Shown piece by piece: positions 5,805-48,998 of a stretch of DNA of 51,129 bases (position 1 is its first letter; every line of letters starts with the position of its first letter). Location of the stretch: the sequence record PZ445411.1. The stretch is one strand, 5' to 3'. The position numbers were made by a program, and so were the translations under genes. Below the pieces are notes generated by a model, which saw only the letters and a program-made list of their open reading frames with translations, made no database searches and was not told the origin of the DNA. Source of the DNA: a phage.

Positions 5805-5887
5805 CACAAAATTATGTTGCACGTTTAACAAAAAATGCTATCATTGTGGCGTTACATACTAACAGCCTTTATATATGGAGGAAGAAA

Positions 5888-9518: not shown

Positions 9519-9543
9519 AAGGGGCGTTGCGCCCCTTTTTTTG
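9519..9543 (+). terminator. rho-independent terminator after major tail gene
   Basis: GGGGCG-ttg-CGCCCC hairpin then T7. Confidence 0.75.
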
Positions 9544-9584
9544 TTACTGTACAATCATGCTACACGATTCATAATCAATTCTTT

Positions 9585-9599
9585 TAGCAAAAAGTGCTA
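9585..9599. promoter_or_regulatory. palindromic box variant in the 5' leader of the tail chaperone / tape measure operon
   Basis: TAGCA-AAAAG-TGCTA perfect inverted repeat between CATAAT (9570-9575) and the RBS of gene 9614; TTGTTA at 9541-9546 lies 23 nt upstream of CATAAT. Confidence 0.35.
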
Positions 9600-9613
9600 T
9601 CAAGGAGAAAGAA

Positions 9614-15474: not shown

Positions 15475-15518
15475 CCCGTATAATTCAACAAATAAAATAG
15501 CACAAAAGGTGAAAAAGC

Positions 15519-20003: not shown

Positions 20004-20231
20004 TTACAGACTGCAATCAGCGTTTTTAAAGTTATCAATGCTTACCCACTGAAAATTAAACGGATAGCCAGCCTTAACAATAGTGCGGTCGCCAACTCGT
20101 TTTACTCCAAAAATAGCAACTGAATACTGCATACCGCTATTTTCATAAATAGCCGTGCATTCACGCTTAGGCATATTTGCACATCCAGTCAGTGTAACGG
20201 TTGCAATCAAAACGGCGATTAACTTTTTCAT
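20004..20231 (-). CDS. lipoprotein, Llp-like superinfection-exclusion candidate
   Basis: 75 aa; signal peptide with lipobox LTGC; overall pattern resembles T5 Llp as I recall it; RBS AAGGAG. Confidence 0.5.
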   Translation of the reverse strand: MKKLIAVLIATVTLTGCANMPKRECTAIYENSGMQYSVAIFGVKRVGDRTIVKAGYPFNFQWVSIDNFKNADCSL

Positions 20232-20262
20232 GTTGGTATCTCCTTAGTTGTTGTTGGTTGCA

Positions 20263-20304
20263 ACTATACACGATCTTGCGGTGGGCGTTTAGCAAAAAGT
20301 GCTA
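20263..20304 (-). promoter_or_regulatory. conserved box variant + TATAGT cassette upstream of Llp-like lipoprotein gene (minus strand)
   Basis: Minus strand TAGCACTTTTTGCTAAAC, 20 nt, TATAGT, then RBS AAGGAG and ATG 20231. Confidence 0.45.
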
Positions 20305-20415
20305 TTCTGTTCCTTTTGTTCTCCGGTGTTCTCAAATCTGCGGAGGCTTAAATTTAGCTCAAAAAGTGAACAGTAATAGAGCGCTATACATACGAATAAA
20401 TATATATACATACAT

Positions 20416-21794: not shown

Positions 21795-21875
21795 ACAGCA
21801 CAAATAGCTAAACAAATGAAAAATGCGGTGTTATAATTCACCGCATAAGTTAACAACAAGCGTGAGGAAATAAAC

Positions 21876-28629: not shown

Positions 28630-28682
28630 ATACACCTCAAACAAAAAAGCCTGACAGATGATAACATCATGCCAGGCATTGT

Positions 28683-28702
28683 TTTTAGCAATTAGTGCTT
28701 TC
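28683..28702 (-). promoter_or_regulatory. conserved box variant overlapping the HTH gene stop, followed by hairpin and T-run (terminator-like)
   Basis: Minus strand AGCACTAATTGCTAAAAAC, then imperfect hairpin GCCTGGCA...TGTCAGGC and TTTTTTG before the primase-like gene. Confidence 0.35.
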
Positions 28703-29158
28703 AGGTTTATACAGGAATCCGCCAGGTTCATAATCTGACATTCTTACCACTCGCAACATTTCACGCTTATCACATCTCTTTGTGAGCGGTTTTCCATTGG
28801 AATCAAATCGCAGATCTGGACGGCAGAATGAAGCGCGATAGCCTTGACAGCCATACTTTTTGTAATCGTTATGCACCTTTTGAGCGCCAGCGGCTGAAAT
28901 CATACCGCGAACGCGCCACTGATTTACAGTTTGCTGGCTAACGTTAAGACGCTTTGCCATTGCTGACACGCTGCCGTAATACTCAATAAGAATGTCAAGC
29001 CGTGCTTTTAGTCCGGCGCGCACCTCATCTTTTAGAACATAATAACCTGTCGGTCGCTTGCGCTTCTTCTTGTCCTTGCCTCGTCTTGTTCCGTTATTGC
29101 CATTAATTGTGCGCTTGTCAATCTTGCCTGTTGATACCGCGATTCGTTGCTCTTTCAT
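28685..29158 (-). CDS. HTH DNA-binding protein (putative transcriptional regulator)
   Basis: 157 aa; RBS GGAG; helix-turn-helix-like SAMAKRLNVSQQTVNQW; very basic N-terminus; sits at a divergent promoter region. Confidence 0.55.
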   Translation of the reverse strand: MKEQRIAVSTGKIDKRTINGNNGTRRGKDKKKRKRPTGYYVLKDEVRAGLKARLDILIEYYGSVSAMAKRLNVSQQTVNQWRVRGMISAAGAQKVHNDYKKYGCQGYRASFCRPDLRFDSNGKPLTKRCDKREMLRVVRMSDYEPGGFLYKPESTNC

Positions 29159-29172
29159 TATTCATTCTCCAA

Positions 29173-29214
29173 TAGCATTTTTTGTTAAACGATGATTTAA
29201 TGATTGTGTATTAT
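29173..29214 (+). promoter_or_regulatory. conserved box + -10-like hexamer (promoter-like cassette) upstream of helicase gene
   Basis: TAGCATTTTTTGTTAAAC, 21 nt, TATTAT (29209-29214); in divergent intergenic region. Confidence 0.45.
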
Positions 29215-29247
29215 ACACGCCAAATGGCATTACTCAAAGGTTTTAGA

Positions 29248-31287: not shown

Positions 31288-31693
31288 TAAAGGCGATTAT
31301 CTGGAGTTTTACGAAAGAGATCCGACGGATACGCTAAAGGAGGAATCACACCAGATCGGGGCGTTTCAATGGTTAACTTATGCTCATCCTGAATTTCTTG
31401 CCTGGCATACGAAAAACGAGGGCGACAAGGGGATCGCCACCGCAATGATGGATCAGCAAGCAGGACTCGTTAAGGGCGTAAGTGATTTTATCATCCTGAT
31501 TGGATTAAAAGGCCGTTATCCGTTTGCAGCAATTGAGATGAAGCGCGTCAATAAGTCTGGAAAGGGCAAGGCTTCACCAGTCAGTAAGGAGCAAAAAGCC
31601 TTCTTACGCCGTGTGCGCGAGCTTGGCGGATTCGCTGCCGTAACATACGGATATAAGCAATTCATGATCGCTGTAGAATACATGATGAAATAG
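31274..31693 (+). CDS. VRR-NUC domain nuclease
   Basis: 139 aa; RBS AAGGAG; PD-(D/E)XK-like D...EMK arrangement (SDFIIL...AAIEMKRV). Confidence 0.55.
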   Translation: MAMTDKGDYLEFYERDPTDTLKEESHQIGAFQWLTYAHPEFLAWHTKNEGDKGIATAMMDQQAGLVKGVSDFIILIGLKGRYPFAAIEMKRVNKSGKGKASPVSKEQKAFLRRVRELGGFAAVTYGYKQFMIAVEYMMK

Positions 31694-31733
31694 CACTTTT
31701 TGTTAAAACAGGCGCGAAGGATTGCGCCATAAT
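31691..31733 (+). promoter_or_regulatory. conserved box + hairpin + CATAAT cassette
   Basis: TAGCACTTTTTGTTAAAAC (TAG is the VRR-NUC stop), hairpin GGCGCGAAGGATTGCGCC, CATAAT 22 nt after TTGTTA. Confidence 0.5.
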
Positions 31734-31767
31734 AACACCAGTTCAACAAGCAACAGGTAATTAAGAA

Positions 31768-32473: not shown

Positions 32474-32713
32474 ATGCAGAAAGAAAGAAGCGTTTATTTA
32501 AATGAAACTGGAGAGTGGTTGTTATTTCGCGCTATGGTTTGCGAGGCGCTTGATAAAAACGAGTTCATAAAACCGCTATTAGGTTGTGATCCGTGGGAGT
32601 TTACAAGCGCGCTTGACATGAGCTTTGAGGAAACAAGAAAACTACCGCTTGAAAAATGGCATGAGCAGATCGGTAAAGACTTGCAAGAGTTTTACGAATC
32701 CGCGACAAAATAG
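32474..32713 (+). CDS. hypothetical protein
   Basis: 79 aa from ATG 32474; stop codon TAG is the first triplet of a conserved box. Confidence 0.45.
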   Translation: MQKERSVYLNETGEWLLFRAMVCEALDKNEFIKPLLGCDPWEFTSALDMSFEETRKLPLEKWHEQIGKDLQEFYESATK

Positions 32714-32753
32714 CACTTTTTGTTAAAACGCCCGGCCTTGTGTCGGGCATAAT
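32711..32753 (+). promoter_or_regulatory. conserved box + hairpin + CATAAT cassette
   Basis: TAGCACTTTTTGTTAAAAC, hairpin GCCCGGCCTTGTGTCGGGC, CATAAT at 32748-32753. Confidence 0.5.
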
Positions 32754-32785
32754 TATTTCATCAAAACGAACAAGAGGAAAACAAA

Positions 32786-36189: not shown

Positions 36190-37773
36190 TTACCCCAGCA
36201 ATGTTGGATTTACGAAAACAACGCCATTAATCACACAAATATAATTTCTTTCTTCAAGCATCGGCAGCAGTTGCGTTTCCATACGCTTCATTACGCCAGC
36301 CTGACCAACAAACGGCTTAACTTTTCGTGCTGCCTCATATATGGCGCGCACATTCAGGATTCCCTTATTAGCCTTGCCGTGTCGAGTGATTATCTCGATT
36401 AGTTTACCCATTTCAGCATCATCACCAGCGTAGCCAGAAGCGTTGGCGGCGCTAATGTATGTTTTGCTCAACTCGCTAAACATCAACAATGCTTCCTGAA
36501 CGGTTTCAACCTCAATCTCTTTCGACTTCTGAGGGTATCCGCCAGGATTAAACCAATTTCGGATAGTGTGCAAAACCGAAGCAATCCTGATCACCTGCTT
36601 ATCCATTTTGCCAAGAGCGCCGCGCAGCATTGTATGCGAATACTTTCCGCCATCAGCAAGGTGCGGCTCCATCTCCTGACGAGCCATGTTAAGAACTCGC
36701 ATTGCTGATTTGCTGATCTTAAGCTGGATGTTTGATTCACTCATGATGTTATGGATCAGCTTGAAATATTGGCTTTTCAGTTCCCCATCAACAGGCTCAT
36801 AAGTAGAATCACCGTTATCATCAACAAACTTTCTACGGCCTAAAAATGATTCCTCACGCACAAGCAAATAACGCTCACTTACACCGATACCGCGCGATCC
36901 TGCATCCATGATGGCATTGATTGTTTCATCCTGGGCAATTACCGCCATACAGCCAAGAGCTTTAAAACTCATATTGTTGTCAGCGTTTGCACGAGCTATA
37001 GAAACATGACCATGATCCCATGCTTTTAGCACAAGTTCGCTGTTGGTTTTACGTTCGCTATTGGCATATGTCAGACCTAAAAGGCTGTTAATACTTGTTG
37101 CCTCGTCTGAAATCACAGCAAAGTTACCCTGGCGATTGTTGATTCTTGCAAGTCCTTCCGGCGTTGTGTCGGACACAGGGAAAACGATGTCACACATCTT
37201 TTCCAGTTTTTCTTCCAGATCTTCTTTCTCCTGGTACAGAGACTCCATATCAGCGCCGGAGCGCTCGCTTTTCATCTCTTTTGCAAGACCTGCCAACTTT
37301 GCCTGAATCTTTTTTCTTTCCTTCTTTCGCTGATCATTAATTCTTTCCACTTCAGCAACCATAGGAGCAAGTGCCAGGCTGTTAACGGCAGATTTACCAG
37401 TTGATGGAGGCTGGCTTGTGACAACGTAAAGAGCGGTTGGTTGATCCGTTCCGTGATACTCAACCGTGAAGCGTCCAAGCATTGCAGCAGATACACAGCC
37501 GATAAAATGCATATATGCCGATGATTCAGGGAATTGAACAGATCGAGCAATGTTTCGCGCCAACTTTCCAACAACATCAACATCATTGCCAAGAGAAATT
37601 ACAGGGTAGCGATCGTTTCCGTTATTAACATCATTAACCTCACCCCAAAAGCTGGACGATTGACGGTATCCGTTAGCCTGAATGGACACGCGCACCGGAG
37701 ACAATCCTTGTGCATCAGCTAATTCGATAATTTGTTTTGGTGTTAGTTTATTGGTTTCAAACGAAAAATTCAT
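36190..37773 (-). CDS. primase/helicase-like replication protein (P-loop)
   Basis: 527 aa from ATG 37773 (RBS AAAGGAG); the longer track start 37827 would overlap a conserved box; P-loop-like SQPPSTGKSA. Confidence 0.5.
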   Translation of the reverse strand: MNFSFETNKLTPKQIIELADAQGLSPVRVSIQANGYRQSSSFWGEVNDVNNGNDRYPVISLGNDVDVVGKLARNIARSVQFPESSAYMHFIGCVSAAMLGRFTVEYHGTDQPTALYVVTSQPPSTGKSAVNSLALAPMVAEVERINDQRKKERKKIQAKLAGLAKEMKSERSGADMESLYQEKEDLEEKLEKMCDIVFPVSDTTPEGLARINNRQGNFAVISDEATSINSLLGLTYANSERKTNSELVLKAWDHGHVSIARANADNNMSFKALGCMAVIAQDETINAIMDAGSRGIGVSERYLLVREESFLGRRKFVDDNGDSTYEPVDGELKSQYFKLIHNIMSESNIQLKISKSAMRVLNMARQEMEPHLADGGKYSHTMLRGALGKMDKQVIRIASVLHTIRNWFNPGGYPQKSKEIEVETVQEALLMFSELSKTYISAANASGYAGDDAEMGKLIEIITRHGKANKGILNVRAIYEAARKVKPFVGQAGVMKRMETQLLPMLEERNYICVINGVVFVNPTLLG

Positions 37774-37800
37774 TGATGATAACTCCTTTTTGATGCGGCA

Positions 37801-37843
37801 ATAATACCGCACCAATGCTACCCGCATTTAACAAAAAATGCTA
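37801..37843 (-). promoter_or_regulatory. conserved box + TATTAT cassette (minus strand)
   Basis: Minus strand TAGCATTTTTTGTTAAATG (TAG is the stop of gene 37841-38062), 22 nt, TATTAT; upstream of primase/helicase-like gene. Confidence 0.5.
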
Positions 37844-38062
37844 TTTTATCCGCTCTATGCTAACTAAGATTTTTTCTGGTTCCTTTGCACTATGGCAATG
37901 CGCGGTTACAGAATCAACAAAATCAAAGTAAAGTGATTTGTGATATGAGAATCCAATCAGCCACCCAACCATCGTTTTCTTTATTGGCCTGACTACATCG
38001 CCAGGCTTGAAGGTTTTTGTTGCTGAATAAGTCACCTTATAGCGATATTCAGTCTTGATCAC
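37841..38062 (-). CDS. hypothetical protein
   Basis: 73 aa; apparent GTG start overlapping upstream stop (GTGA); stop codon TAG is part of a conserved box. Confidence 0.35.
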   Translation of the reverse strand: MIKTEYRYKVTYSATKTFKPGDVVRPIKKTMVGWLIGFSYHKSLYFDFVDSVTAHCHSAKEPEKILVSIERIK

Positions 38063-38445: not shown

Positions 38446-38476
38446 CGTTTATTTCTCCTTTCGTTTCGGTGAAGTG

Positions 38477-38519
38477 ATTATGCCAGGCTTTTACACCTGG
38501 CTTTTAACAAAAAGTGCTA
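38477..38519 (-). promoter_or_regulatory. conserved box + hairpin + CATAAT cassette (minus strand)
   Basis: Minus strand TAGCACTTTTTGTTAAAAG (TAG is the Dcm stop), hairpin CCAGGTGTAAAAGCCTGG, CATAAT 22 nt after TTGTTA. Confidence 0.5.
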
Positions 38520-39227
38520 TTTTGCGTTAGCTTCAAAGATTGCGCGAGCAAAACCGCGCGGTGTGAGGGAGCGGATCATCTTTGTACGAGATGATTTTCC
38601 GCCAGTTTTGGCCCAGCCAGGATTATACTTGTCGTCCTCTTTCGGTAGGATCGTTGCGCGCTGAGGAATAACAAAGCCGTTACCAGTCCAAAGGCATGTT
38701 TTCTTAAAGTACCGATCCCGCGCCGGAATAATATCAGGGAAGTCGGGATGTTTATCATCTTCCGGCAGATAGCCAGCGTAATCGCACGGATGGAACGTAT
38801 AATCAGGCTTACGCCATAACGTTGACAGCTTGCCTACAGGATTCTCTATCATGTAAGGAACACCGAAATAATCAGCGATATGAGCGGCTATTTTGCAAGT
38901 GTCGGCGGCCTCATTTTGGAAGTTAGGATTTTCCATGCGCTTTTTAGCCCAATGGCGAGATCCGCTGTTTGCTAATTGTGTGCAAGGTGGGAAGGCCATA
39001 ATGAAATCAGGCTTACCCCAATTTAAAAGTTTTGCGGTATATTTGAATAGATCATCAATCCACACATTAACGTAAAAAATGTTATCATGGATTATGCGCA
39101 CTGATTGGTAATCGCCGTGATCGGCATCATCGTAATTAAAGCAAATGCATTTATAACCAGCATCAGCCCAATCTTTAACAGCCTTACCAGATCCATCAAA
39201 CAAAGAGAAAATTAAACCTTTATACAT
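38517..39227 (-). CDS. DNA C5-cytosine methyltransferase (Dcm-like)
   Basis: 236 aa; motif I FSLFDGSG, catalytic PC motif FPPCTQ, ENV-like MIENPVG; RBS GAGGTGA. Confidence 0.65.
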   Translation of the reverse strand: MYKGLIFSLFDGSGKAVKDWADAGYKCICFNYDDADHGDYQSVRIIHDNIFYVNVWIDDLFKYTAKLLNWGKPDFIMAFPPCTQLANSGSRHWAKKRMENPNFQNEAADTCKIAAHIADYFGVPYMIENPVGKLSTLWRKPDYTFHPCDYAGYLPEDDKHPDFPDIIPARDRYFKKTCLWTGNGFVIPQRATILPKEDDKYNPGWAKTGGKSSRTKMIRSLTPRGFARAIFEANAK

Positions 39228-39846: not shown

Positions 39847-39876
39847 TATGCAATCCTCATTATATTTGGTGTGATA

Positions 39877-39918
39877 ACTATACCAGGTTTGAGAAATATT
39901 GTTTAGCAATTCGTGCTA
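39877..39918 (-). promoter_or_regulatory. conserved box variant + TATAGT cassette (minus strand)
   Basis: Minus strand TAGCACGAATTGCTAAAC, 21 nt, TATAGT; upstream of gene starting 39846. Confidence 0.45.
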
Positions 39919-40020
39919 TCAGTTGAAATAGCTATGGCGCTTTGCTCGCTTGCCGTCTCCGCCATAATGATCATTTGCAACAGCTACCATCCAGGAATTA
40001 TGGAATATTATTAGCTTCAT

Positions 40021-40302
40021 CTAATTAATGCCAACAACGTTAAAACTTACAGCTTTTGTTGCGCTAAATACATACGCTTCAACAGCCTCACCAAATACAC
40101 GAATTTTTCCATAGCCGTACTGCGCATTCATATTGCGCCAAACCGTCCTGTTAGAACAGAACGCGTTACCAGTCTTGATAAGATTATCAATCTCTTTTCT
40201 TAGGTCATGATAATCAAGCCAGAATCTATAAGCGCGTTGTTTAATGAGTTGCGCCTTGATTGTTTCGGCTGAGTTTTTAAAATCGCTGTTTTTGTATGCC
40301 AT
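40021..40302 (-). CDS. hypothetical protein
   Basis: 93 aa; RBS GGAGG; start overlaps upstream stop. Confidence 0.5.
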   Translation of the reverse strand: MAYKNSDFKNSAETIKAQLIKQRAYRFWLDYHDLRKEIDNLIKTGNAFCSNRTVWRNMNAQYGYGKIRVFGEAVEAYVFSATKAVSFNVVGIN

Positions 40303-40496
40303 TACACAACCTCCATAAAAGTATTGAATCCACGCAGTTTGAAAGCATTGCCATGTTTAACAACGTTCCATGTCAGGCCGGAGTGATACGCAACCATATC
40401 CTCAAGATCAATTGTGATGATAGCGCCTTTCTTAAAGATTCCTTTCTCGTGAGTGGTGTCACGCTGTACAACTTTAACGTCAACCTGTGTTTCCAT
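40302..40496 (-). CDS. hypothetical protein
   Basis: 64 aa; weak RBS AGGAT; preceded by a box and -10-like hexamer. Confidence 0.45.
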   Translation of the reverse strand: METQVDVKVVQRDTTHEKGIFKKGAIITIDLEDMVAYHSGLTWNVVKHGNAFKLRGFNTFMEVV

Positions 40497-40527
40497 TTTT
40501 AAATCCTAGTTCGTTGTCGATGCGCTT

Positions 40528-40570
40528 AATATACCAATCAGAGTCGCATCGGTTTTAACAAAAAGCGCTA
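40528..40570 (-). promoter_or_regulatory. conserved box + TATATT cassette (minus strand)
   Basis: Minus strand TAGCGCTTTTTGTTAAAAC (TAG is the stop of gene 40568-40858), 22 nt, TATATT. Confidence 0.45.
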
Positions 40571-40858
40571 TTCAACAACAGATCCGGTCAAAGAGATAAG
40601 CTGCCTTGTGATCTTGTGTCTGCGATACTGGCGCGCAACAACCGGAAGATTTTCACCGCTTTGATGACCGAAGCAGATCGGCAACTCACCCTCAAGAGAG
40701 CGGAAGCCGCCAAACTCAAGATCACGCACAGGCTTTGAGCGCCACGCTTCAATAAATCCGCGTTCGTCACGCGTGATATAGCGGTATATGTTCGGGAGGG
40801 GCAATTGTATCCCCTCAAAATCCACTGTATCGGTATAGCTGTAAAACTTAGAACTCAT
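40568..40858 (-). CDS. hypothetical protein
   Basis: 96 aa from ATG 40858; stop codon TAG is part of a conserved box; start overlaps stop of the upstream small ORF. Confidence 0.45.
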   Translation of the reverse strand: MSSKFYSYTDTVDFEGIQLPLPNIYRYITRDERGFIEAWRSKPVRDLEFGGFRSLEGELPICFGHQSGENLPVVARQYRRHKITRQLISLTGSVVE

Positions 40859-41000: not shown

Positions 41001-41033
41001 TTTCAAATCCTCGCATTCGTTATCGATGTGTGT

Positions 41034-41076
41034 AATGTACAGGAATACGAGGATTGAGTTTTAACAAAAAGTGCTA
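41034..41076 (-). promoter_or_regulatory. conserved box + TACATT cassette (minus strand)
   Basis: Minus strand TAGCACTTTTTGTTAAAAC, 22 nt, TACATT; flank CGATGTGTGTAATGTAC shared with the copy at 41912-41954. Confidence 0.45.
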
Positions 41077-41077
41077 T

Positions 41078-41872: not shown

Positions 41873-41911
41873 TTTACTGTCTCCTGATGGGTATCTCGTT
41901 TCGATGTGTCT

Positions 41912-41954
41912 AATGTACCCGATCAGGCGGATTCAGTTTTAACAAAAAGTGCTA
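41912..41954 (-). promoter_or_regulatory. conserved box + TACATT cassette (minus strand)
   Basis: Minus strand TAGCACTTTTTGTTAAAAC, 22 nt, TACATT; lies in the 3' end of ORF 41923-42210. Confidence 0.45.
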
Positions 41955-42210
41955 TTTGCTGACTGGTCATTATTCCATCTATTCCATTAATCAGGAATAA
42001 CAGGAATAACTCATTCTCGATCACCTGGATTGTGAGACTTTGAGTTTGATCAATTTTAATCAGGTGATTAACTTTTTGTGTGGAGGGGATAGAGAAACAC
42101 GGCCCTCTTGCATCCTTTCCTGCAATCATGGCGCGCGCATCTGTTATTTCTGTTCTCCGTGTTATCTCAAATAAGCCTCCGCACTTTGAGATAACAGAAA
42201 CGGCGTTCAT
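41923..42210 (-). CDS. hypothetical protein (first gene of the leftward block; start uncertain)
   Basis: Open frame ends at 41923; no convincing RBS for ATG 42210 or 42249; a conserved box lies in its 3' end where it encodes IALFVKT. Confidence 0.3.
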   Translation of the reverse strand: MNAVSVISKCGGLFEITRRTEITDARAMIAGKDARGPCFSIPSTQKVNHLIKIDQTQSLTIQVIENELFLLFLINGIDGIMTSQQIALFVKTESA

Positions 42211-42247
42211 CAACAAAAAGAACAAAATAAAATTTATATATATACCC

Positions 42248-42288
42248 ATAAAATCAATAAGTTAGTTATATATGTATTTATATTTGTT
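42248..42288. repeat. conserved AT-rich segment, copy B (partner at 20416-20455)
   Basis: ATAAAATCAATAAGTTAGTTATATATGTATTTATATTTGTT; followed by GT-rich degenerate repeats to about 42420. Confidence 0.6.
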
Positions 42289-42544
42289 ATTTACTGTTGA
42301 GCTTGTTCTATGGGTATATGGTGGTGTGGTATTGTTTGTGGTGATATGTATGTGTGATTGTATATTTTTTAATCAATGGTGATGTGTGGTGATTTTTGTA
42401 TGTATATATATGGGTATGGAGCAATCCTCCGTCAACCAAGTAAACAATGTCATTTTTAACAGAAAAACCAATGACTTAACTGAAGCATTTTGTTATCTTT
42501 AAACGCGCCACGTGCCAAAAATTGTTATTAAAACACAAAATATA

Positions 42545-42574
42545 TTGACATGTAGGAAAGGCAAGGCAATAATG
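42545..42574 (+). promoter_or_regulatory. strong sigma70-like early promoter for the rightward small-gene block
   Basis: Consensus -35 TTGACA (42545-42550), 17-18 nt spacer, -10 ATAAT around 42568-42574; 36 nt upstream of ATG 42610. Confidence 0.55.
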
Positions 42575-42609: not shown

Positions 42610-43095
42610 ATGAATGAAGAAAATGTTAGTTCTATGTCGCGTAGTGAGTTCTGCGATATGCTTCGCAGCCTGGGCGCGGCAATTGGTAGCGGCGAGCGTA
42701 ACAATGTATTCATGCCAGCACTTTTCTTGTGCGCTAACGTGGAGAACGGCGACGCAATTACAGCATCGTACATGCGCCAGGTGGTAAACCGTGTGCCAGA
42801 AGTAAAGCAAAAAGGCGTGATCAGCATTAAGCGAAAGGTGACTGATGAGGGTGATGGCTTTGTGTTTACGCTCACTGAAGCCAAAAGCAAGCCTCGCGTT
42901 CTGACTGGTGAAGAAATCGACGAGATCGCAGAAAAGCGCGCAGAGAAGGCGGTAAGCAAAATTCTTAATCACCTGGTAAACGTAATGCCAAATATCACAG
43001 ACATGGAAGGCGACAAACTTGCTGGAGCGTGTGAGGCTATCGGGCGCTACCAGGATATGATTCGTAAACTCGCTGGAGGAAAAGAGGATGAATAA
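42610..43095 (+). CDS. hypothetical protein (first rightward early gene)
   Basis: 161 aa; RBS AAAGGAG; 36 nt downstream of a near-consensus promoter. Confidence 0.55.
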   Translation: MNEENVSSMSRSEFCDMLRSLGAAIGSGERNNVFMPALFLCANVENGDAITASYMRQVVNRVPEVKQKGVISIKRKVTDEGDGFVFTLTEAKSKPRVLTGEEIDEIAEKRAEKAVSKILNHLVNVMPNITDMEGDKLAGACEAIGRYQDMIRKLAGGKEDE

Positions 43096-43348
43096 GGCAT
43101 TAATTGGAGTTTTGATTGCAATTGCTACCCTGACCGGATGCGAAAAGGCATCTGAATCAACAGTTGTCGTAGGAGTTGAGTCAGATTTCAAAGTCGGTCG
43201 CCTGTTCACTGTTGACGGATGCACGGCATACCGATTCTATGACAACGGTCGAGCAATCTATTACACCAATTGCAAGGGCGCAACGGATAGCACATACCGC
43301 ATCGGCAAAAACGTAATGCACCAACAAGTCACAACAGATATTAAATAG
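43088..43348 (+). CDS. lipoprotein
   Basis: 86 aa; signal peptide with lipobox LTGC; three further Cys; stop TAG is the start of a conserved box. Confidence 0.55.
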   Translation: MNKALIGVLIAIATLTGCEKASESTVVVGVESDFKVGRLFTVDGCTAYRFYDNGRAIYYTNCKGATDSTYRIGKNVMHQQVTTDIK

Positions 43349-43388
43349 CACTTTTTGTTAAAACGCCAGGCGCAAAGCCTGGCATAAT
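43346..43388 (+). promoter_or_regulatory. conserved box + hairpin + CATAAT cassette
   Basis: TAGCACTTTTTGTTAAAAC (TAG is the lipoprotein stop), hairpin GCCAGGCGCAAAGCCTGGC, CATAAT at 43383-43388. Confidence 0.5.
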
Positions 43389-43420
43389 AGCCTCATCGAA
43401 ACGAGATTGAGGAAAACAAA

Positions 43421-43606
43421 ATGGCACGTCGCATCACCAAAGACCTTAAAGTTCTGAACAAAGAAAACGTAGTTAAAATCCTGGTTATCTGGGGCTACAA
43501 CGAAGAAACAGCAAAGCAGAAGGTAGATGCGGGTTATGACCTGGCTGTAAAAGCAATGCCAAACGACGACGCCAAAGGCATTGCAAACTATGTGGCTTTC
43601 TTTTAA
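43421..43606 (+). CDS. hypothetical protein
   Basis: 61 aa; RBS GAGGAAAACAAA-ATG. Confidence 0.5.
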   Translation: MARRITKDLKVLNKENVVKILVIWGYNEETAKQKVDAGYDLAVKAMPNDDAKGIANYVAFF

Positions 43607-43621
43607 TTAGCAGGTGAATAA

Positions 43622-43807
43622 ATGAAAACGAAATTAGTCCATAAATCAGAAATAAAGATCGGCGACACTGTGATTCACAACGGCGAGCTTAGAACGGTTG
43701 GTAAAGAGTCAATAAGCCACGATGAATTTATGGGGATCTTGTTGTTCGGTGACTCTTATCGGCTGGGCTATAAAATGGTTGAGCTTGTTGAAGAGGTAAA
43801 ATTCTAA
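43622..43807 (+). CDS. hypothetical protein
   Basis: 61 aa; RBS AGGTGA; followed by a conserved box. Confidence 0.5.
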   Translation: MKTKLVHKSEIKIGDTVIHNGELRTVGKESISHDEFMGILLFGDSYRLGYKMVELVEEVKF

Positions 43808-43808
43808 A

Positions 43809-43851
43809 TAGCACTTTTTGTTAAAACTAAAAAACGATAACCAGTCATAAT
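43809..43851 (+). promoter_or_regulatory. conserved box + CATAAT cassette
   Basis: TAGCACTTTTTGTTAAAAC, 22 nt, CATAAT at 43846-43851. Confidence 0.5.
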
Positions 43852-43906
43852 ACATCACATAGGGCGGCACGGCGTCGCCCAGTTAAACCAATCAGGAGAA
43901 AGTACC

Positions 43907-44788
43907 ATGTTAAAACTTGCTAACATTAAATTCCCGATCACCTTCGAATCTCGCGGCGTTGGTCATTTCATGTTTACCGACGAGAAGACATGCACTAAGT
44001 TTAACGAATACGGAAGCCCAAACGCTTCAACAATGGAGATTGAACACTTCATTGAAGCGCACAATAAACACTACAACTCACTCAGAGACTACGCTTACGC
44101 AATGCCAGGATACACATGTTTTCACTACAAGCCATATAAAGGCCAGGTGTTACCAGTGCGCTCACCGGAACGCGCAGAGATTCCGATGGTCAATATGAAA
44201 ACCTGCGACCACAAAAAGCTGTGGTGCTTAAGCGTGGATAACATCAAGTATCCGATTGTTTTTCATTGTTGCGGTGGTTCAACAATCAGGTTCACATCGC
44301 GCGACAATGGCGTTTATAGCGATGGTCAGAAATCAGAGTTGAAAGTTGATTTCTTTGTTAATGGTCACAACAAATTCAATCCGCACAATGAAGAAGATAA
44401 GGTGTACTACGTGGAAGACATTACAAAACACTTGTTTGGAGAAACACCATTCGGCGGCGGTAAGTCATATTTTGCGCAGGCGATAGATAACGCTGCGCGA
44501 CGCATTGGTGAGCAGATTCACAGTCAAACAATTAAGGCGTCTGGTCTTGTTGCGCAAGACGTCGTAAGTCAGGGCGCTATTGAATACATGCCAGTTGCCG
44601 CCACGCTAAAAGGCGTTCAGCTTGATGATGGTATGTGGTTTGAAGTAACGGCAAAACCAAAGACGATCGAGATTCATGATGATGTTGTTATTCTTCTGCT
44701 TCATTACGGTAGCGCAAAAAACCGTACCGTTGCGGGTGAGATTAGTATCAAGCGCGGAACGATGGTTAAGTGGAAGGTTAGCGCATGA
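43907..44788 (+). CDS. hypothetical protein with internal duplication
   Basis: 293 aa; RBS AGGAGA; two similar segments (NIKFPITFESRGVGHFMFTDE / NIKYPIVFHCCGGSTIRFTSRD). Confidence 0.55.
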   Translation: MLKLANIKFPITFESRGVGHFMFTDEKTCTKFNEYGSPNASTMEIEHFIEAHNKHYNSLRDYAYAMPGYTCFHYKPYKGQVLPVRSPERAEIPMVNMKTCDHKKLWCLSVDNIKYPIVFHCCGGSTIRFTSRDNGVYSDGQKSELKVDFFVNGHNKFNPHNEEDKVYYVEDITKHLFGETPFGGGKSYFAQAIDNAARRIGEQIHSQTIKASGLVAQDVVSQGAIEYMPVAATLKGVQLDDGMWFEVTAKPKTIEIHDDVVILLLHYGSAKNRTVAGEISIKRGTMVKWKVSA

Positions 44789-44857
44789 GCATTTACACGT
44801 TGATGCACATTGCAGGCTGGATAGGACTGTTTGGATACATCCTAATGAATTATTAAA

Positions 44858-44899
44858 TAGCACGAATTGTTAAAACTCAAATGTGGGGCCAGGTATAAT
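44858..44899 (+). promoter_or_regulatory. conserved box variant + TATAAT cassette
   Basis: TAGCACGAATTGTTAAAAC, 21 nt, TATAAT at 44894-44899 embedded in GGCC...GGCC palindrome. Confidence 0.5.
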
Positions 44900-44929
44900 G
44901 GCCTCACTTTCAATGAAGGAGATAAAACG

Positions 44930-45148
44930 ATGTACATTAACAAGAAGATGAAATGCATTTCCGTTAACTATGGTTGCGCTGGCATGTTCAAGCCTGGCGA
45001 AATCTATATGGCGCAAAAGTTGAAATCATCAACCGGATCTTTTTATGTGAGCAATAGTAAGGGGCATCGCATGTTCCTGAACGGCGGTGAAGGCACTAAG
45101 GTTATGGCATACGCTATGGTAATTGCTGAATTTGAGGAAGTGAAATAA
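44930..45148 (+). CDS. hypothetical protein
   Basis: 72 aa from ATG 44930 with RBS AAGGAG; the track start 44867 lies inside a box. Confidence 0.45.
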   Translation: MYINKKMKCISVNYGCAGMFKPGEIYMAQKLKSSTGSFYVSNSKGHRMFLNGGEGTKVMAYAMVIAEFEEVK

Positions 45149-45861
45149 TGAAAAAATACGAGTTCGAACTTTGGGGCATCAAATACCATTTTTCCACGAG
45201 CAAGCCGATTGTTATTGTTGATCTGGACGGAACGTTATCAGATGGAACGCATCGCTTGCACCTGCTGCCGACAGAAGATTTGCACCTTACAGAAAGCTGG
45301 TCTGAGTTCAACAAAGCGGCTGTTGGCGATTCGCCGATTAAGAGCACGGTTGCAGTGGTTAACGGATTGTGGATGTCAGGATTTGCCATCGTTATCCTGA
45401 CCGGGCGTAGCGATGAAGTGATTGAGGACACCTGCAAATGGCTTAACGAAAACGGCATCAAGTACGATGCGTTAATCATGCGACGCAAGGAAGACAACCG
45501 CAAAGACACAATCATCAAAGAAGAAGTCTTGCGCGCTATCGGACTGGAAAACATTGTGTGCGCTTTTGATGATTCGCCGAACGTTGTTAAGCACTTCCGC
45601 AGCCTGGGAATCACAACCTATCAGGTCACGGAATACGACAAGCCACATAGTCACATCCAATCGCACGGCGTTGAAGCAATCAAGATCACGAAGCGCGCCC
45701 GATTCGTTGGCAGCAAAGACAGCCTTGTGAATGCCAGCTTTACTAGAGGAATAACCTATGACGTTGTTTCTTATCATGACAAGAGCTTTATAGTTCATGA
45801 TGATTCTGGATGCGCCTGGTCATTCGATCATAGTGACGGCGATTTTGTTAATGCTGAATAG
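45148..45861 (+). CDS. HAD-superfamily phosphatase (nucleotidase / polynucleotide phosphatase-like)
   Basis: 237 aa; HAD motif I VDLDGTLSDGTHR; RBS GAGGAAG. Confidence 0.6.
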   Translation: MKKYEFELWGIKYHFSTSKPIVIVDLDGTLSDGTHRLHLLPTEDLHLTESWSEFNKAAVGDSPIKSTVAVVNGLWMSGFAIVILTGRSDEVIEDTCKWLNENGIKYDALIMRRKEDNRKDTIIKEEVLRAIGLENIVCAFDDSPNVVKHFRSLGITTYQVTEYDKPHSHIQSHGVEAIKITKRARFVGSKDSLVNASFTRGITYDVVSYHDKSFIVHDDSGCAWSFDHSDGDFVNAE

Positions 45862-45901
45862 CACTTTTTGCAAAAACAGATTATCGGGCTTGCGGTATAG
45901 T
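45859..45901 (+). promoter_or_regulatory. conserved box variant + TATAGT cassette
   Basis: TAGCACTTTTTGCAAAAAC (TAG is the HAD phosphatase stop), 22 nt, TATAGT at 45896-45901. Confidence 0.5.
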
Positions 45902-45932
45902 AAGCCCATCGACAACAAGTGAGGATTAAATC

Positions 45933-46196
45933 ATGGTTAATAAAGTTGAGTTTTTCAAAGCGGTAGACAAGATTGACGGCGCGCCAAGTTTCTTTGCTAT
46001 CCATTCCATTGACGGCGAAGACGTTGCATACAACGTGATTAGTCGAGACGGTATATCAAAACTTAGTGACCTTGTGGGTTATATTGTAGCAAACGGGAAA
46101 TGTGCATGGCCCGATTCGCCACGAGAGCCGCGCCGCCGCGACATGCAAAATCCAGTCCTGCTTTACACGCTGGTAATTGAAGGAGTCAACAAATGA
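45933..46196 (+). CDS. hypothetical protein
   Basis: 87 aa; RBS GAGGA. Confidence 0.5.
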   Translation: MVNKVEFFKAVDKIDGAPSFFAIHSIDGEDVAYNVISRDGISKLSDLVGYIVANGKCAWPDSPREPRRRDMQNPVLLYTLVIEGVNK

Positions 46197-46378
46197 TTTG
46201 GTTACTTGTATTTTTAGTGGTTTTCTTTTATATTTCAGGTTTATTCATCTTCCGCGCATTGGTTAAAGAGTGTGATTGCACTGATAAAGATCAGCCTCTT
46301 GTTCTGATGTTCTGGTTTGTGTGGTTTTGGGTGGCGCTTTACCAGATTGTACGGGATGAAAGCGGCTTTAAGTGGTGA
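46193..46378 (+). CDS. small membrane protein
   Basis: 61 aa; two hydrophobic segments; RBS AAGGAG; start overlaps upstream stop. Confidence 0.45.
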   Translation: MIWLLVFLVVFFYISGLFIFRALVKECDCTDKDQPLVLMFWFVWFWVALYQIVRDESGFKW

Positions 46379-46571
46379 CTCTTACTATAGCGCATTCATG
46401 CAGTGCGCTATGTTGAGATAACAACATGAGATCATGAAGATGCGAAACTTCGAAAAAATCGTATCCAAGAAGAAGCGATACAGCTACTACGAGCACAAAG
46501 AGATGAATCAACGCTATCGCAAAAAGCGACAGCGCCCGGGTAAACATTAAAGCAGATATGGAGACAACTAA

Positions 46572-46763
46572 ATGCAATTGCCACCATTTGACGAAAAAAA
46601 CGAAGAGATTGCCAAAACTGCAAGTCACCTTCGAGAGCTTGCCGACATGATAGAGCGCGGTCAGGTTATGATTGTCAATATGACGATTAAAAGCGAGAAT
46701 AGAAATTTCAAGGTTTTAAGCGAGACAACAGAAATTACTATCTTGAAAGCAAGAGGGGAATAA
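46572..46763 (+). CDS. hypothetical protein
   Basis: 63 aa; RBS GGAG. Confidence 0.45.
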   Translation: MQLPPFDEKNEEIAKTASHLRELADMIERGQVMIVNMTIKSENRNFKVLSETTEITILKARGE

Positions 46764-46765
46764 AT

Positions 46766-47356
46766 ATGAAACGAGACATTATCATTCTTAACGGACCGCC
46801 AGGAGTTGGCAAAGATACGCTTGCGGCATACTTAACTGGTCATCGTTACGCAGCCGTTAAAGCGTCGTTTAAACAGCCTATGTTCGATATTGCATTCTCC
46901 ATGCTTGGCGTTTACCGATATGACGAGTTCATTGATCTGTATAACGACCGCGAGCAGAAAGAAAAGCCTCAAGCAATCTTGCAAGGCAAGTCACCGCGCC
47001 AGTTCATGATCTGGATTAGCGAAGAAGTCATGAAGCCAGCTTTTGGCGAGCAATATTTTGGGAATCGCATGGTTGAGCAAGTACACGAGATGTACAGGGA
47101 TTTAGCTGTTGTAATTAGCGATGGCGGATTCCCTGAAGAAATCAAGCCTCTCGTTAAGGCAGGCCATGAAGTTCACATTTGCCGACTGCATCGCGAGGGA
47201 TTCACGTTTGATGGAGATTCGCGAAACTATATTGACCTGAGCGGATACCATCACCGAGTCAAGCATTACGACTTCACAATGACTGATGGCGAGCCAGAAA
47301 AGACTGTTGACGAGATCATCAAAACTGTCCAGTGGAAACACATTAAGATCAAATAG
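46766..47356 (+). CDS. P-loop nucleotide kinase (dNMP kinase-like)
   Basis: 196 aa; Walker A GPPGVGKDT near N-terminus in an arrangement resembling phage dNMP kinases; RBS AGAGGGG. Confidence 0.6.
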   Translation: MKRDIIILNGPPGVGKDTLAAYLTGHRYAAVKASFKQPMFDIAFSMLGVYRYDEFIDLYNDREQKEKPQAILQGKSPRQFMIWISEEVMKPAFGEQYFGNRMVEQVHEMYRDLAVVISDGGFPEEIKPLVKAGHEVHICRLHREGFTFDGDSRNYIDLSGYHHRVKHYDFTMTDGEPEKTVDEIIKTVQWKHIKIK

Positions 47357-47396
47357 CACGAATTGCTAAAAGCGGGGCGCAATGCCTCGCTATAAT
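47354..47396 (+). promoter_or_regulatory. conserved box variant (palindromic TAGCA-N5-TGCTA) + TATAAT cassette
   Basis: TAGCACGAATTGCTAAAAG (TAG is the kinase stop), 22 nt, TATAAT at 47391-47396. Confidence 0.5.
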
Positions 47397-47426
47397 GCAA
47401 ACACCAATCAACGAGAGGAAATCATC

Positions 47427-47828
47427 ATGGTAGAGTTAAACGACATTCGCGTTGGAACAAAATTTCGCGTAACCTGGGCAGATAAATATTGCGGAGTTAG
47501 CAAGGGTCAGGTTGTTACGGTGGATAGTATTTATCGCGGATGCAGCAAAGACTTTCGCCGACCACGCATCAAGAATGGCTATATCATAACTCGCCGTTTT
47601 GGCTTTGAGCATTATTACGTAGTGGCGACTCAAGGAGTTTTGATTGAGCTTCAGCGAATCAGCGATCATCGCGGCTGTCATGTCAAAACTACGAAGATAC
47701 CATGCCAGAGAGCGCGATACGATGCGCGCAGGATGCGCAGGCTTGCACGAAACGCGATCAAGTTCAAAAAGCATGGTGGTAACTTTTACCGAATGTACAA
47801 AGGGATTGCGCGAAATGCTGGAAAATAA
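47427..47828 (+). CDS. hypothetical basic protein
   Basis: 133 aa from ATG 47427 (RBS GAGAGGAA); Arg/Lys-rich C-terminal third. Confidence 0.5.
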   Translation: MVELNDIRVGTKFRVTWADKYCGVSKGQVVTVDSIYRGCSKDFRRPRIKNGYIITRRFGFEHYYVVATQGVLIELQRISDHRGCHVKTTKIPCQRARYDARRMRRLARNAIKFKKHGGNFYRMYKGIARNAGK

Positions 47829-47946
47829 CAACAACGCAACAAATCCAAAGCCGCCATTTGATTTTCATGAAATCATGATTGTGTTATTCTTGATTCTCTT
47901 AGTTGTTTATTCAGTGAGGGCCGCAATATGGTTTTTAATGCACTAA
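47815..47946 (+). CDS. small hydrophobic peptide (single TM)
   Basis: 43 aa MLENNNNATNPKPPFDFHEIMIVLFLILLVVYSVRAAIWFLMH; RBS AAGGGA; overlaps neighbours. Confidence 0.3.
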   Translation: MLENNNNATNPKPPFDFHEIMIVLFLILLVVYSVRAAIWFLMH

Positions 47947-48191
47947 AACGAATCTTTAAACCTGAATACCGGATCGTTGCTTGCACAGAATGTGAGATTT
48001 ATTACCTGCAACGCCGCCGCGTTATTAGTGGGGATTGGGAATATCTGACGGATGATGCTTTCGGCTTTTGGGCTATGGAGTTCAATAGCTACAGCGAAGC
48101 GCGTGAGTACGCTAAAAAGTTGCACAAGTTCAGACCTTACAAGCTGCGTTTGCTGGTTGTCAAAAAATGCGATGTGTGGGATCACGAATGA
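47928..48191 (+). CDS. hypothetical protein
   Basis: 87 aa; RBS GAGGG; CTEC motif. Confidence 0.45.
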   Translation: MVFNALKRIFKPEYRIVACTECEIYYLQRRRVISGDWEYLTDDAFGFWAMEFNSYSEAREYAKKLHKFRPYKLRLLVVKKCDVWDHE

Positions 48192-48367
48192 AAAGAGTAA
48201 TTATCATTTTTATTGCCCTTATCGCTGGTTGCTACCTGGCATATAATTATAGCGGCATTGTTGAGTCAATTGGCGGGTTGATTATCTTCATGGCTGGCGG
48301 GTATGCTGGCTATTGTGATGGATTCGAAAACGGAAAGCGTTACATGCTGACCGGAAAAAAGAAGTAA
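48188..48367 (+). CDS. small membrane protein / lipoprotein candidate
   Basis: 59 aa from ATG 48188 overlapping upstream stop; hydrophobic N-terminus with LIAGC. Confidence 0.4.
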   Translation: MKRVIIIFIALIAGCYLAYNYSGIVESIGGLIIFMAGGYAGYCDGFENGKRYMLTGKKK

Positions 48368-48410
48368 TGTTAACCGCGACGCTTCGGTGGCGCTAAAAGG
48401 AGGAAACAAA

Positions 48411-48698
48411 ATGGCTAAAAGCAATCGTAAAATGTTGATTAACGCATTCGAAAAGGCGGCGCTTGAGCGTGGTTGGAATGACTCATTTCACACAGCAAAC
48501 TGTATCCGCCGTTACGGATTCAAGAATTGCCGATCCTGGGCGCGTCAAATGGCTTCATGGTATGATCTTGATGCGCATTACCTTGATATGGATTGCGCCC
48601 TGGTTGAAATGATTGAGCAGGCCGCATTAGAGGATCGACCATTAACGCAATCTGATTTTGACGATTTTGTGCGCGATGAAATCTATTACATGAGCTAA
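48411..48698 (+). CDS. hypothetical protein
   Basis: 95 aa from ATG 48411 with RBS AAAGGAGG; followed by a conserved box. Confidence 0.5.
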   Translation: MAKSNRKMLINAFEKAALERGWNDSFHTANCIRRYGFKNCRSWARQMASWYDLDAHYLDMDCALVEMIEQAALEDRPLTQSDFDDFVRDEIYYMS

Positions 48699-48741
48699 TA
48701 GCACTTTTTGTTAAAACTTCCGCGAGGGCATTTGTTAAAGT
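48699..48741 (+). promoter_or_regulatory. conserved box + weak -10-like hexamer
   Basis: TAGCACTTTTTGTTAAAAC, 22 nt, TAAAGT; a second TTTGTTAAAG follows at 48731-48740. Confidence 0.45.
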
Positions 48742-48773
48742 GTCCTCATTGAAGCGAAACAGAGGAAAGCGCA

Positions 48774-48998
48774 ATGAAAATTCGAATTACCAATATTGAA
48801 TCAGTTAGCCAGTTTGATACTGACGAATTAAGCCTTGGGCAGTGTGGGATCGAGGTTGGCGATGTGTTCGAAGTTACCGGACAATATCGCGATGGAACTT
48901 TGAGCATTCAAGCACCACGAGATACCGATGATGGTTGCATCAAGGCAGGAGATGAGTTTAGCGTTAACGAAGGAGAATACGAGGTAGTAGAAGAATGA
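48774..48998 (+). CDS. hypothetical acidic protein
   Basis: 74 aa; RBS AGAGGAAA. Confidence 0.5.
   Translation: MKIRITNIESVSQFDTDELSLGQCGIEVGDVFEVTGQYRDGTLSIQAPRDTDDGCIKAGDEFSVNEGEYEVVEE

Follow-up and report, generated by a model that had tools for sequence, protein, structure and literature searches.

The window analyzed here (sequence record PZ445411.1; 51,129 nucleotides [nt]) is the whole genome of a T1-like (Drexlerviridae) phage whose nearest relatives are PGN590, KarlJaspers, and pSf-1. It carries repeated copies of a 20-bp box, nearly all of which are followed at a fixed distance by a -10-like hexamer; we refer to box and hexamer together as a cassette. Matched base by base, the box is a near-consensus marbox, and each cassette is likely a sigma70 promoter of the class II MarA/SoxS/Rob type, the boxes of which are probably bound by the host proteins Rob, MarA, or SoxS (or RamA in Klebsiella and Salmonella). 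The in silico basis of this reading is the identity of the marbox, its orientation and spacing, the lack of a -35 element, and conservation across genera.

Identity of the repeated box

The published marbox consensus is GCAHWWWWTGYYAAA (PMC6900184). Perfect matches to it number 14 in the window, 12 in TLS, 11 in T1, and eight in Klebsiella phage 1513 (a webervirus), against 0.03-0.17 expected across the four genomes and 0.17 for the window (dinucleotide shuffles); phage Motto was also retrieved. The phage cores include GCACTTTTTGTTAAA, GCACTTTTTGCTAAA, GCACGAATTGCTAAA, and GCATTTTTTGTTAAA, and the full 20-bp box reads A-T-A-GCAC-N7-YT-AAA-A-C, forward on the coding strand. When scored with a weight matrix made from 87 Salmonella MarA/SoxS/Rob/RamA chromatin immunoprecipitation sequencing (ChIP-seq) sites, 19 of the 21 window boxes fall at the 78th-100th percentile of those sites, the low scorers being the box at 40568 (41st percentile) and a hexamer-less box at 15500 (23rd). 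The upper quartile of the ChIP-seq sites is reached by 21 positions in the window versus 0.75 in shuffles, and the core at 45861 is identical to one Salmonella RamA/SoxS ChIP-seq site. The phage sites are near-consensus and rank with the top quartile of real sites, unlike most marboxes in chromosomes, which are degenerate. Further, when 99 sites were collected with GCA, AAA, and the hexamer as the only anchors and all remaining positions left free, the free positions reproduced the degeneracy of the marbox: position 1 is A in 84% of sites, position 2 is Y in 87%, and position 7 is C in 80%, with A/T at positions 9-10, T at 12, G at 13, C (54%) or T (41%) at 14, and T at 15.

A search with the 19-mer described in an earlier note on this DNA found 16 copies with up to three mismatches in the window (0.08 expected from dinucleotide shuffles), and a looser scan of both strands found 19 box-plus-hexamer cassettes and two hexamer-less boxes. 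All 19 cassettes are oriented toward the downstream hexamer and gene. In the rightward early block the boxes at 43346, 43809, 44858, 45859, 47354, and 48699 were confirmed, which makes six copies in this range and not the seven that had been counted. Their hexamers are, in order, CATAAT, CATAAT, TATAAT, TATAGT, TATAAT, and TAAAGT, the last of which (48736-48741) is better read in this way than as TTAAAG. All six hexamers lie 17-18 nt past the 19-bp box, which is 21-22 nt past TTGTTA, exactly as had been proposed, and each is followed by a ribosome-binding site (RBS) and by an ATG that is 21-49 nt beyond the predicted start. The view of the repeat as a promoter cassette, composed of box, fixed gap, -10 hexamer, short leader, RBS, and ATG, is upheld.

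The boxes do sit at the ends of genes, although less uniformly than had been described. The initial TAG is itself the stop codon of the upstream gene in three of the six early-block copies (43346, 45859, and 47354) rather than in five, and in the other three a TAA lies 0-1 nt upstream; over the whole window the TAG is a stop codon in eight of 19 cassettes. It is so often the upstream stop because marbox positions 2-4 (T-A-G) let gene ends pack into the box.

As a repeat, the box has been published, contrary to the earlier note's impression that it had not been described for T1-like phages. A 2024 paper on TLS reported it as an intergenic 21-nt repeat, noted similar ones in T1, Rtp, and Rogue1, counted no more than three sigma70 promoters in TLS, and posed the function of the repeat as an open question, with a stoperator, an enhancer site, or an UP element as the options (PMC11447400). 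These Drexlerviridae repeats (DR1-18 in TLS) are the same element as the window box: their consensus is aaATAGCACnnnTTGnTAAAA, and they are intergenic, co-oriented with genes, and located about 76 nt ahead of the start codon, compared with 75 nt between the box at 43346 and the ATG at 43421. The TLS paper (PMC11447400) contains no fixed -10 hexamer, marbox identity, hairpin, or host transcription factor. A full-text literature search found no paper tying the marbox (or Rob together with SoxS) to T1-like phages, searches on the motif, on Drexlerviridae start sites, and on a T1 transcriptome found nothing beyond the TLS paper, and a TolC review handles the marbox and TLS separately. Assigning this known repeat to a known promoter class appears to be new, and the marbox identification makes the question left by the TLS paper directly testable.

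Spacing and promoter class

Spacing statistics were computed on 79 sites pooled from the window, T1, TLS, and Klebsiella phage 1513. All three of the other phages carry cassettes of the same design, which bears out the presence of the box in related T1-like genomes. The hexamer starts exactly 20 nt past the 15-bp core in 72% of sites and 19 nt past it in 13%, such that 85% have a -10-like hexamer at one of these two distances. The background at other offsets is 0-5% of sites, with up to 8% for the scored hexamer over all other offsets from 0 to 69, and under a looser YAnnnT test one other offset reaches 13%; the fixed hexamer spacing described in the earlier note is confirmed. With the -10 hexamer set at -12 to -7, positions -51 to -31 carry high information content and positions -30 to -15 carry none, and it is high once more at G-14, T-12, A-11, and T-7. 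The second and sixth hexamer bases (A-11 and T-7) never vary, at 2.0 bits each, and near the start C is preferred at -3 and -1 and A at +1.

Class II promoters of the MarA type have a forward marbox that overlaps the -35 position, with sites clustered near -41, and have no recognizable -35 element, since the activator displaces sigma region 4 (PMC12052159, PMC10268841, PMC8811837, PMC9178005). The phage box spans about -50 to -31, with its center near -41, and stands in place of the -35 element. It is in the forward orientation on the coding strand (GCAC upstream, AAA promoter-proximal), and the hexamer at -35 to -30 reads AAAACn, in which no -35 element can be recognized. Rob is reported in the cited literature to contact -47G and -45A in the Rob-micF complex, and the G and A of the phage box fall at -47 and -45. 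The micF promoter of E. coli K-12, read directly, consists of GCACTGAATGTCAAA, 20 nt, and TAGAAT, with the annotated start 8 nt past the hexamer; its 20-nt offset is that of the main class of phage cassettes. micF is the only direct spacing reference, and the upstream regions of sodA and fpr gave no 15-mer site with four or fewer mismatches at a usable offset from a -10 hexamer.

The distance from TTGTTA to the hexamer had been considered too long for a -35/-10 pair, and we agree: TTGTTA is 21-22 bp away, and the best in-range candidate, TTAAAA, is 19 bp away in most copies. Because micF shows the same 20-nt offset, however, a spacing that looks too long is what would be expected of an activator-dependent sigma70 promoter. 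Instead of a phage-specific, non-sigma70 design, as was first suggested, the cassettes have the standard class II MarA/SoxS/Rob sigma70 layout, with the marbox-to-hexamer distance of micF. TTG(T/C)TA is part of the marbox and not a -35 element. The early region shows no excess of canonical sigma70 matches (20, with 32 expected).

The likeness to micF-type class II promoters extends to an asymmetric 20-bp marbox with GCAC and YAAA 7 bp apart, forward and replacing the -35 element, and to a 15-bp core separated from a sigma70 -10 by 20 nt, with the box centered near -41. What sets the phage apart is the number of sites, about 20 in 51 kb of a virulent phage, and a group of extra features: A at positions 3 and 19, G-14, a C-rich discriminator, a hairpin around the -10, and a start at ATCGAAACGA. 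Activator-dependent phage promoters without a -35 element include the MotA-box middle promoters of T4, Mor/C of Mu, and Lpa of P1. These share with the cassettes a sigma70 -10 and an upstream factor site that replaces the -35; in contrast, their factors are phage-encoded and bind at other positions (the MotA box is near -30). No match to the MotA or AsiA family was found when 37 phage proteins were scanned against Pfam.

Candidate binders and competing explanations

Here, we infer the identity of the binding protein, the dependence on an activator, and the start sites. A monomeric activator of the MarA/SoxS/Rob family, with a pair of helix-turn-helix (HTH) motifs, would place one HTH on GCAC and the other on YAAA, contact the C-terminal domain of the alpha subunit (alpha-CTD) and sigma region 4, and bring in the host's RNA polymerase, in the manner of the solved micF complexes of Rob and RamA; RamA could be this activator where the host is Klebsiella or Salmonella. 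The -10 hexamer would be read 18 bp (sometimes 17 bp) downstream of the 20-bp box and behind the conserved G at -14, and transcription would begin about 7 nt past the hexamer, usually at the A of ATCGAAACGA, to give a leader of 21-49 nt with an RBS. Almost all of the early, replication, and accessory transcription units would be under about 19 marbox promoters of this kind, the first genes would be served by a few canonical sigma70 promoters, and the same factor would repress at a reversed marbox in the spacer of the major-capsid promoter.

Among the 37 phage proteins scanned against Pfam, which cover part of the open reading frames (ORFs), none has an HTH of the AraC type (HTH_18 or HTH_AraC), and NCBIfam and PHROGs scans gave no MarA-like protein either. 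A tblastn search with MarA, SoxS, and Rob (query sequences typed by hand) found no phage homologue, the best E value being 0.17. Since no AraC-type protein was found in the phage, host Rob, MarA, or SoxS would be the likeliest binders. The hosts of 842 phage records that carry the conserved regulator gene of this phage (see below) are mostly Klebsiella, Escherichia, Shigella, Salmonella, and Citrobacter, the exceptions being 20 'Campylobacter' and one 'Pseudomonas', and MarA, SoxS, Rob, and RamA are described in enterobacteria in the cited literature. Two candidates for a phage-encoded MarA-like protein were rejected: a weak stretch in the ORF at 48387-48698 (E = 0.17) has no family support in Pfam, NCBIfam, or PHROGs, and the model of the DUF7174 protein lacks the MarA fold.

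Several observations weigh against activation by these host proteins. T1-like phages grow very fast in plain broth. MarA and SoxS, by contrast, are made mainly on exposure to inducers, and Rob is largely sequestered and inactive without them, according to the cited literature. Fast growth without inducers would mean either that low levels of activator suffice at consensus sites or that some other factor acts. Within the box, positions 3 and 20 are conserved beyond what a marbox requires (99 sites). The marbox consensus of Martin 1999 reportedly has Y at position 19, as does the form AYnGCACnnWnnRYYAAAYn, whereas the phage boxes have A there. Moreover, the TTAAAA in the box is a 4/6 match to the -35 consensus at 19-bp spacing and, together with G-14, may give some activator-independent activity, and the box is partly palindromic (TAGCA-N5-TGCTA) and could be open to a dimeric phage protein.

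The last of these points leads to an alternative that we regard as unlikely, in which a phage protein, either a Cro/YdaS-like regulator or the DUF7174 protein, reads TAGCA-N5-TGCTA as a dimer near -42, much as lambda cI acts at PRM or CRP at class II promoters; genes behind canonical promoters would then be immediate-early and box genes delayed-early. The half-sites TAGCA and TGCTA are 10 bp apart from center to center, and both candidate genes stand behind canonical sigma70 promoters (as with P01 and P57 of TLS). The Cro/YdaS-like regulator (28685-29158; equivalent to TLS gp57 and T1 gp23) is the one clear HTH protein of the phage, with 29.8 bits for YdaS and 25 bits for P22 Cro; it occurs in the 842 phage records, mostly of enterobacterial phages, and a box lies within its own leader. 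The DUF7174 protein (42610-43095), encoded by the first rightward gene, has a model with a winged-helix-like N-terminal domain and long helices, and weak structural matches. However, the Pfam matches of the regulator are just below the curated cut-offs, and about half of the sites are not perfectly symmetric, position 14 being C in only 54% while its partner G4 is invariant. C7, AAA(A) at 16-19, and A1 lack a symmetric counterpart. In which positions are fixed and which degenerate, the sites follow the asymmetric marbox, and a chance match to a host motif of 15-20 bp, in the right orientation and with the exact spacing, is very unlikely. A symmetric dimer site was our first idea, and asymmetric conservation argues against it. 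A sigma70 promoter that needs no activator is quite improbable in our estimation. In such a promoter, TTAAAA would be a weak -35 acting at 19-bp spacing with G-14 and the -10, the A/T tracts would be UP-like, and the resemblance to a marbox would be incidental or vestigial. In its favor are the 4/6 match of TTAAAA to TTGACA, the conservation of G-14, a promoter scan that calls the 44858 cassette as TTAAAA-18-TATAAT (10/12), and the UP elements proposed by the TLS authors (PMC11447400). Yet the invariant GCAC (-47 to -44) falls beyond the limits of the -35 hexamer and cannot be called an A/T tract, UP elements are less conserved than these 20 bp, which are near-perfect across genera, and a 19-bp spacer is poor for sigma70. 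Neither sigma region 4 nor the alpha-CTD is known to read a GCAC-type sequence.

The cassettes also often carry a hairpin, which may act at the RNA level. The -30 to +8 region of 67 cassettes folds more stably than shuffles do (mean z -3.0; 72% of cassettes below -2), so the GC-rich inverted repeat that had been placed in the spacer is real, but its arms more often bracket the -10 (35/67) than lie inside the spacer (14/67), and 18/67 cassettes have no real hairpin. Read from the sequences, the arms vary from one cassette to the next, with co-variation among orthologues. Folding is the more stable on the sense strand in 50 sites and on the antisense strand in 16 (p = 8e-6), with z of -3.1 versus -1.7 and more G.U pairs in the sense strand, which points to an RNA role in read-through transcripts from upstream, as a leaky terminator, 3' stabilizer, or processing site; the hairpin may also act as DNA. 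Four spacer hairpins of T1 are annotated as rho-independent terminators. As a group, though, the hairpins are not intrinsic terminators: a T-rich tail occurs in some copies only (28651-28701 and three T1 sites), and a scan for terminators listed none at the six early-block cassettes. The earlier idea of RNA processing could fit the hairpin part of the cassette only. Taken further, the folding, its sense-strand bias (50/67 sites), and the T1 annotations would allow the whole cassette to be primarily an RNA element on read-through transcripts, with the AU-rich box as an RNase E entry site, the hairpin as a processing site, stabilizer, or leaky terminator, and the hexamer as a by-product. This is very improbable, given that the hairpin varies in sequence and position whereas box and hexamer are fixed to the base, that the invariant A2 and T6 of the hexamer are a sigma70 signature, that the 18 cassettes noted above lack a meaningful hairpin, and that the majority of hairpins have no U-tract; an RNA function is probably an added one of the hairpin and not one of the box. 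Finally, the stoperators of mycobacteriophage L5 are also many oriented intergenic sites that often overlap stop codons; unlike the boxes, they bind the repressor of a temperate phage and are not paired with a -10 at a set distance, and T1-like phages are virulent. Stoperator-like sites, at which a bound protein blocks elongating polymerase, are among the proposals of the TLS authors (PMC11447400), and the boxes are indeed oriented with transcription, intergenic, and often placed over stop codons. We nevertheless find this explanation barely credible: no repressor function was assigned to the tested proteins in Pfam, NCBIfam, or PHROGs (no targeted search for an L5-type repressor was made), and a roadblock model leaves no role for a -10 hexamer tied to the box with base-exact spacing.

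Other known motifs were tried and set aside. For a sigma54 promoter (GG-N10-GC, TGGCAC-N5-TTGC), the box, TAGCAC-N3-TTG, has A where the first G should be and is 2 bp short in spacing, and a sigma70 -10 hexamer follows. Among the consensus sequences of CRP, FNR, Lrp, IHF, and Fis, Lrp alone is similar (12-13/15) and was dropped because the marbox fits better, geometry included. The label 'GntR-family regulator' in some relatives (TLS gp19) has no Pfam GntR match, and TLS gp19 is not homologous to the gene at the same position in the window.

Returning to host activation through marboxes, its broadest form is that T1-like phages have wired almost their whole early and middle program (about 20 promoters) to MarA/SoxS/Rob (or RamA), with a reversed marbox restraining the major-capsid promoter; we put this at somewhat less than an even chance. 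If true, a virulent phage would here clearly be relying on a host stress-response activator, and not on a factor of its own, for most of its transcription. The host regulator would then be activator, timer, and sensor of host state (bile salts, oxidants, antibiotics) for the phage, and the scarcity of canonical promoters in T1-like genomes would be explained. As they need no -35 recognition, marbox promoters could keep working if the phage shuts down host transcription that depends on the -35. Phage growth would be tied to the multidrug-resistance regulators of E. coli, Salmonella, and Klebsiella, multidrug-resistant strains mutated in marR or ramR should host the phage better, and there would be relevance to phage therapy with Klebsiella weberviruses and to phage-antibiotic combinations. 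The cassettes would also be a source of compact activator-dependent promoter parts.

Cassettes and other sites across the genome

The six early-block cassettes are all on the plus strand. The first (43345-43395) has its marbox at 43345-43364, with core GCACTTTTTGTTAAA from 43348, a spacer hairpin at 43365-43383, and -10 CATAAT at 43383-43388; the predicted start is the A at 43395, the ATG is at 43421, and the TAG at 43346-43348 ends the ORF 43088-43348. The second (43808-43858; marbox 43808-43827, -10 CATAAT 43846-43851, predicted start 43858, ATG 43907) has a spacer without a hairpin. In the third (44857-44906), a marbox at 44857-44876 with core GCACGAATTGTTAAA precedes -10 TATAAT at 44894-44899, which is bracketed by a hairpin at 44883-44907, and the predicted start A is at 44906 with the ATG at 44930. 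The fourth (45858-45908) is built similarly, with its marbox at 45858-45877 (core GCACTTTTTGCAAAA), -10 TATAGT at 45896-45901, a bracketing hairpin at 45886-45907, predicted start A at 45908, and ATG at 45933, and its TAG is the stop of ORF 45148-45861. The fifth (47353-47403; marbox 47353-47372, core GCACGAATTGCTAAA) has a spacer hairpin at 47374-47388, -10 TATAAT at 47391-47396, a predicted start A at 47403, and an ATG at 47427, and its TAG ends ORF 46766-47356. The sixth (48698-48748) has its marbox at 48698-48717 and a hairpin at 48724-48747 with the -10 TAAAGT (48736-48741) in loop and stem; the predicted start A is at 48748 and the ATG at 48774.

The 65-nt cassette at 48699-48763 is 100% identical to TLS 6477-6541, even though the two phages belong to different subfamilies and the neighboring genes on either side are unrelated; with the other cassettes, TLS has only the box in common. 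Judged from this one junction, the 48699 cassette is possibly a recombination linker. The promoter-early stem-loop (PeSL) cassettes of T4-type phages, reportedly proposed as recombination linkers by Arbiol et al. 2010, are likewise stereotyped modules of promoter and stem-loop ahead of many small early genes. They are said to be canonical sigma70 early promoters with a -35 element, whereas here the marbox takes its place.

Further putative marbox promoters on the plus strand are at 21795-21844 (core GCACAAATAGCTAAA, -10 TATAAT; gene start 21876), 29172-29221 (helicase gene, -10 TATTAT 29209-29214), 31690-31740 (gene start 31768), and 32710-32760 (gene start 32786), the last two both with -10 CATAAT and a spacer hairpin. 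The helicase promoter stands face to face with a minus-strand canonical promoter, TTGAGT-16-TATAAT (29237 to 29210), within 29172-29237, and the two share a -10 region. The minus-strand member serves the gene of the Cro/YdaS-like regulator (28685-29158), and this layout is kept in TLS, T1, and Klebsiella phage 1513.

On the minus strand, putative marbox promoters precede the cor-like gene 20004-20231 (20256-20305, -10 TATAGT), the primase gene (28651-28701, -10 TATCAT in the loop of a terminator-like hairpin), and the helicase-like gene 36190-37773 (37794-37844, -10 TATTAT with a bracketing hairpin). At 28651-28701, the stop of the regulator ORF lies inside the marbox, and the regulator's terminator hairpin and the primase promoter are fused. 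Further promoters of this kind on the minus strand are at 38470-38520 (-10 CATAAT, spacer hairpin; gene start 38445), 39870-39919 (core GCACGAATTGCTAAA, -10 TATAGT; gene start 39846), 40521-40571 (core GCGCTTTTTGTTAAA, -10 TATATT; gene start 40496), 41027-41077 (-10 TACATT; gene start about 41000), and 41905-41955 (-10 TACATT; gene start 41872). The small early gene at 40302-40496 (minus strand) matches Pfam PF25180, 'Phage antiviral trigger protein Gp54', with E = 1.5e-37. One more minus-strand promoter of this kind, at 9550-9600 (-10 TAGCAT), points leftward into a bidirectional terminator (9521-9545) and has a T1 equivalent at 18850 on the minus strand. Transcription from 9600 toward 9550 would yield about 35-45 nt of RNA in antisense to the major tail gene's 3' end.

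The major-capsid gene (ATG 5889) has a predicted canonical promoter on the plus strand, TTGCAC-16-TATCAT (5817-5844), the spacer of which is filled by a reversed marbox (5822-5841). The same layout is found in T1 (TTGACG-16-TATTAT) and TLS (TTGAAC-16-TATATT). The MarA-promoter literature has screened a third, core-promoter class, in which the marbox overlaps the core promoter, with repression at one target, pbpG, and by analogy the reversed marbox probably serves repression or timing. The rightward arm has a single strong canonical promoter, TTGACA-17-AATAAT (42545-42573, plus strand), which is ahead of the first marbox cassette and upstream of the DUF7174 gene. A weak marbox-like box on the plus strand at 15497-15516 (GCACAAAAGGTGAAA), which corresponds to TLS repeat DR8, has no -10 hexamer and directly abuts the RBS and ATG (15519) of a J-like tail gene. 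In T1, a similar box is just ahead of the small terminase gene (8362).

Some RamA, SoxS, and Rob ChIP-seq peaks in Salmonella SL1344 adjoin the phage-type genes gpP and cIIa at about 2.76 Mb (PMC10268841 Table 1), and other phages or prophages, too, may carry functional marboxes. Between the leftward and rightward early arms of the window, about 200 bp at 42230-42450 are non-coding and AT- and GT-rich, with loose direct repeats (GTGTGGT..., TATATGT...) and a ATATACCCAT / ATGGGTATAT inverted motif; this region may serve as an origin, in packaging, or as an array for host factors.

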